Source of the DNA: Sulfurimonas sp.
GTDB taxonomy: Bacteria > Campylobacterota > Campylobacteria > Campylobacterales > Sulfurimonadaceae
Assembly: GCF_026988655.1 (NCBI RefSeq)
Contig: NZ_JALSKT010000074.1
Location: 20,000 to 83,999, forward strand
Direction: 5' to 3'
Length of the DNA: 64,000 nucleotides
The notes below the pieces were generated by a model that saw only the letters and a program-made list of their open reading frames with translations, was not told the DNA's origin and made no database searches. This document shows positions 48,760 through 54,405 of the stretch, piece after piece; the first letter of the stretch is position 1, and every line of letters starts with the position of its first letter. Made by a program: the position numbers and the translations under genes.

Positions 48760-49215
48760 TTATAATTTTTGGATACTTCTTTTAAAATACCTAATTGGCT
48801 CACTAATAACGGTAGGATCTGTCACACTAACCGAGATATCCATAAGAACTGAGCCATTTTGTTCAGGGGTAGTCACTGTAGTATAAGTCGTACATCCTGC
48901 TGGTGCTGGAGCCGTATATATAAAGCGATTTGTTATTGAAATATTGTAGATACCATTTTGAAGAAAATGAAGATCATTTTCATGGCTACATGGTCCATCT
49001 TGTGCTATTTTTAGTAAGGAATACTCAGCTGCACTATGAGCAAGTAAAATAGACTGCTCATACAGATATAAATCTGCTGTTTTTTTTGTTGTTTGTGAAG
49101 TGAGTGCTAGAGCTAATGCCATTATGGTAGCCATAACAACAATAATTGTAATAGCCATAATCATAGCCATACCAGAGCGGAAGCTTCTTTTTAAAATATT
49201 GTTTTTTCTTTGCAT
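48760..49215 (-). CDS. PilX/MshP/GspK-like minor pilin-type protein
   Basis: N-terminus KRSFRSGMAMIMAITIIVVMATIMALALA, a non-cleaved pseudopilin-like hydrophobic helix with no Gly/Ala-Phe site. Overlaps the upstream gene by 25 nt. Confidence 0.5.
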   Translation of the reverse strand: MQRKNNILKRSFRSGMAMIMAITIIVVMATIMALALALTSQTTKKTADLYLYEQSILLAHSAAEYSLLKIAQDGPCSHENDLHFLQNGIYNISITNRFIYTAPAPAGCTTYTTVTTPEQNGSVLMDISVSVTDPTVISEPIRYFKRSIQKL

Positions 49216-50093
49216 AAAGAATACTCCTCAACTAAGTCAGATTTAGTACAGACTTGAATTTTCATAATAGAACCTATAGACATAAACTGAAAAGTACTTA
49301 CATTTTCCATAATTACAGTGTTTTTTGTAGTGGCATCTGAGAGTTTGTCTCCATCCCAAGGTTGGTAATCATAATAAAGTCTCAAAACCCCTTTGTTATT
49401 TGTTCCAGCTTCATAAACAATGGCATATGCTGTCCAAGCAAGTTGATAATATTCATAAATATCTATGCCTGAAAAGTCAGTTTTTCTTGGGGCAAACTCA
49501 TTAGAATTCGCTCCTGCTTTTATTGGATGCATAGCTCCTTGTTGGTTGAGGATTTCGCCATTCCAGCCATAATCTGTTTGAATATTACTATTTGCACCTA
49601 AAAAATAAAGTGCTGCGTTTGAGAGAGAACTTCCACCACTAGAAAGTTTAGAAATCATGGTGTCTATTTTTGTTGTATCCGTTGCAGGTGAGATGAGTTT
49701 ATCTTTATCTCCCCCGTTGAGGTCTATGATGCCACTCCAGTCTGGAAGATATGGTGTTGCATTGTTCTCAGAACTACCGCGAAATCCTTCATCATGATAT
49801 CCTATCCACTCTAATACCGTAAAAGTACTTCCACTTGCATCTGCTATTGCCACTGGAGTATCACCTGTACTTTTCCTAGCTATGACAGAGTCTTTAATTC
49901 TATATTGCAGTCGTGAAGCTATAATTTCTACGGCAGTTTCGCTATTTGATTGTAGTTCATTATTTACATTTGCAAAGATAAAACTTTTATAGGCTTGTGC
50001 TACAAATTCAACACCGAACTTTCCGATAATCCCCATGATGATAATGACAAAAATCAACTCCAGCATAGTAAAGGCAGCATGTCTTTTCATCAA
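49191..50093 (-). CDS. PilW/MshO-like minor prepilin
   Basis: Leader MMKRHAA/FTMLELIFVIIIMGIIG with Glu at +5. 300 aa. 4-nt overlap with the upstream gene. Confidence 0.6.
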   Translation of the reverse strand: MMKRHAAFTMLELIFVIIIMGIIGKFGVEFVAQAYKSFIFANVNNELQSNSETAVEIIASRLQYRIKDSVIARKSTGDTPVAIADASGSTFTVLEWIGYHDEGFRGSSENNATPYLPDWSGIIDLNGGDKDKLISPATDTTKIDTMISKLSSGGSSLSNAALYFLGANSNIQTDYGWNGEILNQQGAMHPIKAGANSNEFAPRKTDFSGIDIYEYYQLAWTAYAIVYEAGTNNKGVLRLYYDYQPWDGDKLSDATTKNTVIMENVSTFQFMSIGSIMKIQVCTKSDLVEEYSLCKEKTIF

Positions 50094-53700: not shown

Positions 53701-54405
53701 ACAATTATCTATATAGTATTGTGTATTGGTCAAAATTTCTGGTGTGCCATCATCGTATACTCCAACTAGTCCATTATTTACATTGTTTACGGTTACTGTG
53801 TCATAGTTATTTATATTATCGATATTTACATAGTGTTGATTGTCGATGACTCTTGCGATATTATATGTTTGATTTAAATCACCACCTGAAACAAAAAAAC
53901 CAAAAGAGTCATTAAATCTAGAACCTACATACTCGTTGTACTCTTCAGAAGCAAATTGGTAATCAACGAGTAACAATCTTGTGTTTTCATCCAAAGTAAC
54001 ATCAAACTCAAAAACAACAGTATCAAAATTCGCACGAGGATCAATAGCTAAGAGGTCAGGATCATTAAGGTTAGCAGTATGGGTAATTGATGTTCGCCAA
54101 TTACTATTGGTAGTAAAAGATTCTTGAACTGACATGGCAGTTAAGATAATTCCTTCGTCAATCTCTAGCTTTGCACCACCAACTCCATTAGAAAACGTAC
54201 CGACTTGTGTTGCCTCACCAAATGTTATTTTTGGATTAGTAATTGTAATCCCTATACCTTGAATTTGGGATGCAAGTTCTGTCGCTGTTACATCATATTT
54301 ACAGTTTGCTGTGGAAGTATTGACACAGTTCGTGGCAGCAAAAAGAACAGGTGTAAAAATGAAGAAAGTGAAAAAACTTATTAACTTTAATAATTTACCT
54401 TTCAT
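50707..54405 (-). CDS. 1232-aa secreted surface protein with N-terminal choice-of-anchor-L domain (PilY1/MshQ-analogous adhesin candidate)
   Basis: ATG 54405 follows AAGGGGA. Signal peptide [26 protein letters not shown]. Residues about 60-230 show GIILTA...DPDLLAI...[10 protein letters not shown]...[27 protein letters not shown]...VNNVNNG, the hallmark of the choice-of-anchor L domain. The remaining roughly 900 aa are Asn/Thr-rich and beta-type. Confidence 0.7.
   Translation of the reverse strand: [1232 protein letters not shown]

Follow-up and report, generated by a model that had tools for sequence, protein, structure and literature searches.

A candidate tip module of a type IV filament in Sulfurimonas and other Campylobacterota: a four-gene operon for a giant secreted protein and three pilin-like proteins

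Tip assemblies of type IV filaments in which core minor pilins are joined by a large protein that is not a pilin are a known kind, and their PilH-I-J-K/PilC version (FimU-PilVWX/PilY1) is the closest functional precedent for the locus described here. In this precedent, the C-terminal 'plug' of PilC/PilY1 attaches to the K-type pilin through β-strand augmentation at the terminal strand of this pilin, is needed for tip localisation and also suffices for it, while the plug sequence varies between systems and co-evolves with PilK (bioRxiv 10.64898/2026.09.18.752573). The present analysis concerns a stretch of 64,000 nucleotides (nt) of Sulfurimonas sp. (contig NZ_JALSKT010000074.1, positions 20,000 to 83,999; hereafter the window), whose minus strand harbors an operon of four overlapping genes for a very large secreted protein and three pilin-like proteins. 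We consider it probable that this operon constitutes a self-contained tip module, composed of a tip adhesin and its priming pilins, for a type IV filament, and that this module is non-homologous to PilY1. What is new about it is that the conserved region of the tip protein is unannotated, that the globular domains of the pilins match nothing known and that the operon is detached from any machine, a T2SS (type II secretion system) being the only one nearby.

The genes of the operon and the parts of the large protein are the following (positions are those of the window; an arrow in a leader separates positions −1 and +1, and E5 denotes glutamate at position +5).

50707..54405, minus strand: gene for the large secreted protein, an open reading frame of 1232 amino acids (aa) with Sec signal, choice-of-anchor L head, all-β body and C-terminal tail
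54337..54405, minus strand: type I (Sec) signal peptide, read from the translation, with neither lipobox nor prepilin signal; cleavage site deduced from the pattern
53515..54279, minus strand: choice-of-anchor L head, aa 43-297 (NF038133), a variable module
50788..53505, minus strand: constant body, aa 301-1206, a β-sandwich chain in which numerous cysteines are conserved and which contains CSRDNF(A/S)IRPE as a motif
50710..50787, minus strand: C-terminal tail, aa 1207-1232, with W-x-G at aa 1208-1210 and a conserved terminal NRRxxW
50090..50713, minus strand: pilin-like protein of 207 aa in the GspI/PilV position, leader MVRKSA↓FTLIE, E5 present
49191..50093, minus strand: pilin-like protein of 300 aa in the GspJ/PilW position, leader MMKRHAA↓FTMLE, E5 present
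48760..49215, minus strand: pilin-like protein of 151 aa in the GspK/PilX position, leader ...KRSFRSG↓MAMIMAIT, no E5

The four genes overlap successively by 7, 4 and 25 nt. These values had already been given in a preliminary description of the window and hold for the above open reading frames, with the second becoming 1 nt if a later ATG is used. The 300-aa gene has an alternative start 3 nt downstream, an ATG at 50090, which would yield 299 aa and a 1-nt ATGA overlap. An upstream GTG at 54432 would extend the large protein to 1241 aa; the 1232-aa form is the likely product, because an AAGGGGA ribosome-binding site lies 6 nt upstream of the ATG at 54405. In the 25-nt overlap of the 300-aa and 151-aa genes (49191-49215), CKEKTIF plus stop codon and MQRKN... 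are read in two frames. A few Sulfurovum loci have a stop codon inside the MQRKN frame of the 151-aa gene ortholog, and the downstream gene therefore must start later there.

The large protein consists of an exchangeable N-terminal and a constant C-terminal part. The preliminary description had recognized a choice-of-anchor L domain at its N-terminus, and NF038133 indeed matches aa 43-297 with an E-value of 4.4e-52 and 176.7 bits against a cut-off of 27 (NCBIfam); PF26766 is recorded (precomputed) on homologs. This head presumably is a ligand-binding module and also occurs on Bacteroidota proteins with C-terminal sorting domains of the type IX secretion system (T9SS). Within the present family it is found on the window protein and its closest relatives. 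Orthologs at the same genomic position bear other heads, i.e. DUF11, Big_9/cadherin-like, Calx-beta, He_PIG, PPC or DUF3344 domains, and some have nothing recognizable in their N-terminal part. The earlier remarks that the adhesin gene comes first and that the head is unusual thus stand, but the head is not special, being one of many interchangeable heads in the family.

About 100 full-length homologs of the large protein occur in Sulfurimonas, Sulfuricurvum, Sulfurospirillum and Sulfurovum. Orthologs range from ~900 to 2700 aa in length, and their last ~930 aa are constant, with 21-65% identity and many invariant Cys, Trp and Arg residues. This constant body is proposed to act as stalk and docking region. 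The sequence after the head contains 10.8% Asn and 8.9% Thr, and the AlphaFold2 model of the body is an all-β chain of β-sandwiches (mean predicted local distance difference test score (pLDDT) 88.9, predicted template modelling score (pTM) 0.78), in agreement with the Asn/Thr-rich β-sequence noticed previously. Upon comparison of the model with the PDB by Foldseek, only generic multi-immunoglobulin chains were retrieved (S-layer protein, complement MG domains, integrin legs) with TM-scores of about 0.1, and no PilY1 propeller was among the matches. PDB sequence and profile searches with the large protein returned nothing. Pfam gave no family at E≤0.1 in the part outside the head and none at E≤1 in 30 diverse bodies. 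A profile of the body, in turn, retrieved 1835 clusters at 50% identity, 1081 of them at E≤1e-30; the best 150 of the 1835 matches are close family members, in all of which the body is C-terminal and preceded by heads of 0 to about 1300 aa. The body is an unannotated family of more than 1000 clusters without detectable kinship to PilY1/PilC or MshQ, and the large proteins currently are labelled 'choice-of-anchor L domain-containing' or 'hypothetical'.

Kinship to PilY1 or MshQ had been raised in the preliminary description and had to be given up. PilY1 homology is not supported, given the lack of a Pfam match in the window protein and the 30 bodies and the lack of a propeller in the model and among its Foldseek matches, while a search of the same proteins for the DUF6701 domain of MshQ gave no match at E≤1. 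Likewise, a resemblance of the tail to MshQ C-termini, suggested at the time, could not be confirmed.

The three downstream genes had been credited with prepilin-like N-termini. For the 207-aa protein this is borne out by PF07963 (E 9.7e-5) and TIGR02532 (E 4.7e-4), and the 300-aa protein matches the same two models weakly. In both, position −1 is A, +1 is F and +5 is E, so that a class III signal with leader, residues −1 and +1, E5 and helix α1 is present in each, and their orthologs preserve SA↓FTLIE and AA↓FTMLE, respectively. The leader of the 151-aa protein is basic and ends in G at −1; the hydrophobic stretch behind it lacks E5, and so does that of the orthologs. Its N-terminus is of the GspK type: the GspK model matches with an E-value of 3.9e-5 and 23.3 bits (cut-off 130), covering positions 2-68 of 307 only, and the same model matches 15 orthologs with a best E-value of 2.8e-8. 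Aligned by hhalign with the K-like protein of a type II secretion system (T2SS) that is encoded in the same window, the 151-aa protein is similar over 51 N-terminal columns at a probability of 25%. A full-length GspK-type globular domain was not found in it with NCBIfam, hhalign or PDB profiles. Its most conserved segment is a C-terminal strand, EPIRYF(K/R)R(S/T)IQKL, with R146, Q149 and K150 conserved.

Outside the N-terminal helix, the three pilins resemble nothing that could place them in a family. PDB profile searches matched this helix only (MshA, PilA, geopilin and GspG; E 1e-6 to 1e-2), and in hhalign comparisons with the GspI, J and K of the window's own T2SS the likeness was confined to it as well. 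Over 74 pilins of the module, NCBIfam returned the prepilin motif 39 times, ComGF 20 times, the GspK N-terminus 15 times and GspG and GspH 13 times each, while Pfam returned N_methyl alone. The 300-aa pilin has 1291-1464 database homologs; the best 120 listed per search are at least 51% identical to the window protein, are assigned to Sulfurimonas or Campylobacterota wherever the source name includes an organism and go by the name of 'prepilin-type N-terminal cleavage/methylation domain-containing protein' or 'type II secretion system protein'. As modelled by AlphaFold2 (mean pLDDT 86.7), the 300-aa pilin combines a 53-residue N-terminal helix (residues 10-62) with a β-domain and thereby has pilin architecture.

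An assignment of the three pilins to the I, J and K families by homology was attempted and abandoned: only the N-terminal helix is recognizable, and a J-type fold is unsupported. Hence, the I-J-K assignment used here is based on gene order, sizes, the E5/E5/no-E5 pattern and the GspK-type N-terminus, not on globular homology, and the J role of the 300-aa pilin is suggested by gene position and size only. For comparison, PilV, PilW and PilX have about 185, 274 and 195 aa, respectively.

The module is not a peculiarity of one genome. Exact-protein look-ups and a scan of one genome per species yielded 84 loci, all of them from Campylobacterota (Sulfurimonas, Sulfuricurvum, Sulfurovum, Nitratiruptor, Nitratifractor, Hydrogenimonas, Sulfurospirillum and unclassified Campylobacterales), a distribution in which absence outside this phylum has a restricted meaning, since the species scan was seeded with family motifs. 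In every locus with downstream DNA, orthologs of the three pilin genes (207, 300 and 151 aa) come after the large gene, with order and strand unchanged, and the module usually is located between bamD-lon and hpf-recG. An overlap of 7 nt is found in 49 loci, one of 4 or 1 nt in 43 and one of 25 nt in 33, far above chance expectation. Chance linkage of the four genes is thus excluded, because order and overlaps are kept across several families. None of the 84 loci encodes a homolog of GspD, E or F at a distance of up to 10 kb from the module, and PilQ, PilB and PilC, if present, would have been retrieved by the same search.

Some loci carry additional pilins or large proteins. In Sulfurovaceae, a fourth pilin of ~215-245 aa with a GspH/FimU-type N-terminus (AFTMxELVxVIVVLGILAALAxPR...ILSxIRY), which is absent from the Sulfurimonas operon, is encoded immediately behind the K-like gene in some loci and divergently upstream in others. 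Examples include L004 (15461-16141) as well as L026, L045, L054, L055, L057, L069, L073 and L075; the divergent placement is found in L059, L066, L067, L078, L081, L082 and L084. These loci therefore possess a full H-I-J-K complement plus the large protein. In one Campylobacterales metagenome-assembled genome (L008, 14444-14875), an extra major-pilin-like protein of 143 aa with G at −1 (MIWRHKNG↓FTMIELIFVIV...) is encoded between the 300-aa and K-like genes. Finally, two loci harbor tandem paralogs of the large protein upstream of a single pilin set, namely L015 (7235-17880; 1883 and 1536 aa) and L030 (2198-12775; 1700 and 1770 aa).

It is conceivable that no filament is involved at all and that the pilins merely anchor a periplasmic or outer-membrane protein to the membrane or act as its chaperones, or that the linkage is fortuitous. 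Such a reading would fit globular domains that match no known pilin and an operon without a major pilin. Yet, the conservation of order and overlaps excludes that the genes are linked by accident, and the E5/E5/no-E5 pattern together with the GspK-type N-terminus is specific to filament-priming sets, which makes this explanation very improbable.

The most likely contact between the large protein and a pilin complex would be the C-terminal tail, a candidate 'plug' by comparison with PilC/PilY1. The last 26 residues have pLDDT values <50 in an otherwise confident AlphaFold2 monomer model, but are conserved as a terminal pattern (N/S/K)(R/K)Rxx-W-COOH with a W-x-G at about −25. In an alignment of 15 sequences with 22-63% identity, R at −4 and W at −1 are invariant (R929 and W932 in body numbering), and W908 and G910 (same numbering) are conserved as well. 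In Sulfurimonas, the TGG-TAA end of the large gene overlaps the GTG start of the next gene. The overlapping start codon was considered as sole cause of the conserved Trp and rejected, since the terminal W is retained in Sulfurovum-type loci, where the genes do not overlap; the constraint therefore acts on the protein.

Further indications come from paralogs and from one deviating clade. The two L015 proteins align over their last ~350 aa only (37% identity), and their tails are near-identical: ...SNASRNTNRRIQW and ...SNASINTNRRITW (NTNRRIQW / NTNRRITW). Both L030 copies share an unusual tail, ...ADKSRILQW / ...ADKSRILKW, which is weaker evidence because these copies are 62% identical overall. 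In one Sulfuricurvum clade, the tail is replaced by ...YDY(T/S)PA(T/I)R, with loss of NRRxxW and the terminal W, and in exactly this clade none of the three pilins retains the consensus C-terminus: a Trp is gained by the K-like pilin (RSWQKL vs R(S/T)(I/L)QKL), the 300-aa pilin ends in CRERxVHVRY vs CKEKTIF and the 207-aa pilin ends in ...TFFKSNVGKF.... Paralog tails and clade co-change point to a shared partner of the tails, which may be the pilin complex.

How far the parallel to the PilY1/PilC module extends can be judged from its individual elements. Both modules have minor pilins in I-J-K order with a K-type pilin devoid of E5 and co-encode a very large, Sec-exported non-pilin protein with variable N-terminus and conserved C-terminus; in both, the extreme C-terminus is disordered (here in the model) yet conserved, and paralogous tip proteins can share one pilin set. 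The FimU/PilVWX-PilY1-like architecture noted at the outset is accordingly supported by order, overlaps, sizes, E5 pattern, variable head, conserved tail and paralogs, as well as by the GspH/FimU-like fourth pilin of Sulfurovaceae loci. In contrast to PilY1/PilC, the large protein lacks the IPR008707/PF05567 β-propeller and has a ~900-aa β-sandwich chain instead, its gene comes first, the Sulfurimonas version is devoid of an H-type pilin, the pilin globular domains are unrelated at a detectable level, and type IVa machinery is seen neither in the window nor within 10 kb of the 84 loci.

Other described systems share fewer traits. MshO-MshP-MshQ of mannose-sensitive haemagglutinin (MSHA) pili also combine minor pilins with a large non-pilin protein, which for MshQ has about 1200 aa, and MSH-type systems have been reported in Epsilonproteobacteria; however, DUF6701 is not matched here, the gene order differs and msh machinery genes are not nearby. 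The GspH-I-J-K tip of the T2SS is similar in the A at −1, as in GspH, I and J of the window, and in a K-type protein without E5 that matches the GspK N-terminus. On the other hand, H, I, J and K proteins are already present in the T2SS cluster, GspK is twice as large as the 151-aa protein, and a tethered giant protein is known on no T2SS tip. The Verru_Chthon cassette (proteins A-D) of Verrucomicrobia likewise comprises four genes, occurs repeatedly and encodes proteins with prepilin-type N-termini, one of which is very large. Its large protein itself bears a prepilin signal, whereas the one described here has a Sec signal, and the few module pilins that weakly match Verru_Chthon models do so with the N-terminal helix only. 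In the type IVb pairs CofJ-CofB and TcpF-TcpB, a non-pilin protein is likewise recognized by tip minor pilins via a flexible terminal peptide (bioRxiv 10.64898/2026.09.18.752573), but this peptide is N-terminal, the minor pilin is a homotrimer of one modular protein and the cargo is released.

The proposal of a tip module is made because each design element of PilC/PilY1 recurs here with unrelated parts, i.e. Sec export, a variable head, a conserved C-terminus, a conserved tail that is disordered in the model, paralogs sharing pilins and a K-type pilin with its C-terminal strand as the most conserved segment. By this analogy, we infer pilin processing, complex formation, tail docking, tip location, an adhesin role and the machine used as follows. 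The three pilins would enter the inner membrane and be processed by a prepilin peptidase to form a priming complex of the I-J-K type (PilV-W-X-type), which would end up at the filament tip. The 1232-aa protein would be exported by Sec to the periplasm and then be captured on the priming complex via its conserved C-terminal region. Here, the NRRxxW tail might add a strand to one of the pilins, as the PilC/PilY1 plug does to PilK. The growing filament would subsequently push the β-sandwich stalk and the exchangeable head through the secretin, and the head could then serve as a surface-exposed adhesin. The machine would be encoded elsewhere than in the operon and possibly is the T2SS encoded 12.7 kb away.

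Within the window, no type IV filament machine other than this T2SS is encoded, which makes it the candidate assembler of the module.

26011..36003, plus strand: complete T2SS cluster in the order G, H-like, F, K-like, three open reading frames, C, D, E, I-like, J-like

The cluster unites C, D, E, F and G with H-K pseudopilins, which identifies it as a T2SS, and three open reading frames of 309, 142 and 176 aa without database match lie where GspL/M/N would be expected. The scores of GspD and GspG are 353 bits (cut-off 351) and 138 bits (cut-off 89), respectively. Since GspE, F and C, although the best matches for their open reading frames, remain below the NCBIfam equivalog cut-offs, the system is regarded as a divergent Campylobacterota T2SS. 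Its K-like protein has 302 aa (MRNRMRKA↓IALMITLFF) and no E5, and its GspC is of the PDZ type. The gene order of the cluster is unusual. In Sulfurovum indicum, T2SS genes are reported to be induced on S0. A VolA/Pla-1 family phospholipase (729-2768, minus strand; 395.9 bits, above cut-off) is encoded next to a FadL-like outer-membrane transporter (2932-4116, plus strand). VolA/Pla-1-type lipases of other bacteria are T2SS-dependent surface enzymes, and the phospholipase may be a substrate of the nearby T2SS.

Three observations favor the T2SS as the machine. It is the only one in the window, the module is never adjacent to a machine in the 84 loci, and the H, I and J pseudopilins have A at −1 like the operon pilins (GspG has G), which suggests a common prepilin peptidase as judged from sequence. 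A prepilin peptidase gene is present neither in the window nor in the T2SS cluster. In line with the preliminary description, which had seen no major pilin, ATPase or secretin besides the T2SS, no other class III signal with E5 was found in any frame of the 64-kb window beyond the T2SS and the operon, nor was any paralog of GspD, E or F. The remainder of the window is housekeeping, mainly the nuo operon.

The same observations have to be considered under a different light, in which the three pilins form an alternative T2SS pseudopilus tip that exports the giant protein, which then is released or passed to the surface. That the sole machine in the window is a T2SS with its own H-I-J-K and that the module never lies beside a machine of its own would agree with this cargo-loading function. 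Moreover, choice-of-anchor domains are typical of secreted and surface proteins with various sorting systems, and a disordered terminal peptide as recognition element has a type IVb precedent in CofJ/TcpF (bioRxiv 10.64898/2026.09.18.752573). However, T2SS substrates are not known to require a private I-J-K set, there is no sign of release, and variable head, constant stalk and tandem paralogs are reminiscent of tip adhesins (PilC1/2, PilY1 paralogs) rather than of enzymes or toxins. Export as mere cargo hence appears unlikely.

Alternatively, a separate type IVa or MSH-type pilus encoded elsewhere might use the module, in which case the T2SS would be irrelevant. Operons of minor pilins and PilY1 often are unlinked from pilB/C/M-Q, and the extra 143-aa pilin with G at −1 inside the L008 operon would suit such a pilus. 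The report of MSH-type systems in some Epsilonproteobacteria (one study) and the annotation of an 'MshL' in Sulfurovum indicum also speak for it and against the T2SS as the machine, but the cluster meant by 'MSH' and 'MshL' may in both cases be this T2SS-like one. Furthermore, no such machine is encoded in the 64-kb window or within 10 kb of the 84 loci, and an epsilon symbiont genome was not credited with type IV pili, while two compared gamma symbiont genomes were. Literature searches on pili in Sulfurimonas and Sulfurovum returned nothing decisive. Overall, a dedicated pilus is judged quite unlikely.

A third use of the T2SS-like machinery would be DNA uptake, with the module as DNA-binding tip of a competence pseudopilus. 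For transformation, Campylobacterota employ genes resembling those of a T2SS, and in Campylobacter jejuni the Cts genes represent such a DNA-uptake system. Minor-pilin complexes at the tip of Com pili bind DNA (bioRxiv 10.64898/2026.09.18.752573). Contrary to this function, the ortholog heads are adhesin-type repeats (cadherin-like, DUF11, Calx-beta, Big_9), neither a DNA-binding domain nor a competence gene is found nearby, and the PDZ-type GspC of the nearby cluster is typical of secretion systems. A role in DNA uptake is unsupported, because the heads are adhesin-type and competence genes are missing near the module, and it is considered highly improbable.

Returning to the tip module, several points weigh against it. 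The large protein is without homology to PilY1/PilC or MshQ, no known I, J or K pseudopilin profile matches the pilins in their globular parts, and Foldseek of the 300-aa model against the PDB gave nothing better than E 0.1, with no GspJ, XcpW or EpsJ. The co-change of tail and pilin C-termini is a single evolutionary event, and mutual information of the tail with the C-termini of the pilins, calculated for 57 paired loci, was dominated by phylogeny and showed no signal above this background, the C-terminal strands not being enriched; the covariation is thus suggestive only. Lastly, a second tip set would have to be accounted for, as the T2SS comes with an H-I-J-K set already. In a more far-reaching reading, the private I-J-K set would compete with GspH-I-J-K and turn the T2SS into an adhesin-displaying or giant-cargo-specific filament. 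The module would then represent a third, hitherto unrecognized mode of tip display, with a ~900-aa β-sandwich stalk and an NRRxxW plug instead of a PilY1 propeller or a modular pilin, and would be widespread in sulfur oxidizers of vents and sediments, with heads swapped by substrate. Taken jointly, these claims are rather unlikely.

Regarding the genomic surroundings, the operon is flanked by glyQ, recG and hpf on one side and by bamD and lon on the other, with a 235-nt gap to the divergently oriented bamD. The gap contains one promoter-like site.

54537..54564, minus strand: promoter-like site TTAACA-16-TATTAT from a consensus scan (10/12 matches), as weak evidence

Across the gap region as a whole, promoter-like matches are not enriched versus shuffled sequence. 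An Rfam search of the window (G+C ~34%) matched no RNA element, and no terminator-like site was found on the coding strand of the operon. The genes at 57843-63483 (minus strand) encode a PAS protein, a protein of 539 aa that matches no family, a hybrid histidine kinase of 1069 aa and a response regulator with a single domain. Orthologs of the kinase bear a Pfam NIT domain. In Sulfurimonas and Sulfurovum this set stays close to the module, and in Sulfuricurvum it follows directly downstream. There may be a regulatory link between both. The Campylobacterota-type nuo operon (6055-23510, plus strand) has two consecutive NuoG-like genes (747 and 828 aa) and, at the place of NuoE/F, a GltD-like NAD(P)-binding protein of 678 aa. 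It is preceded by a gene for a 578-aa AAA+ ATPase (4125-5861, plus strand), whose best matches, the anti-phage ATPase IteA and CdvC/Vps4-like proteins, are far below the cut-offs.

Taken together, the module would provide a functional context for more than 1000 clusters that now are generically labelled, as well as for their pilin partners named 'type II secretion system protein'. If the tip-module proposal is true, it represents a design convergent with PilY1/PilC from unrelated families, and the plug principle would reach a non-homologous system. At the same time, the module is a natural test of whether a T2SS can bear an alternative tip. The bacteria in question, i.e. sulfur-oxidizing Campylobacterota such as Sulfurimonas, Sulfurovum, Sulfuricurvum and their relatives, are dominant primary producers at vents and in sulfidic sediments and aquifers, and would attach via a conserved modular tip adhesin. 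By exchanging its heads, they could partition niches on sulfur, minerals, hosts or biofilms.

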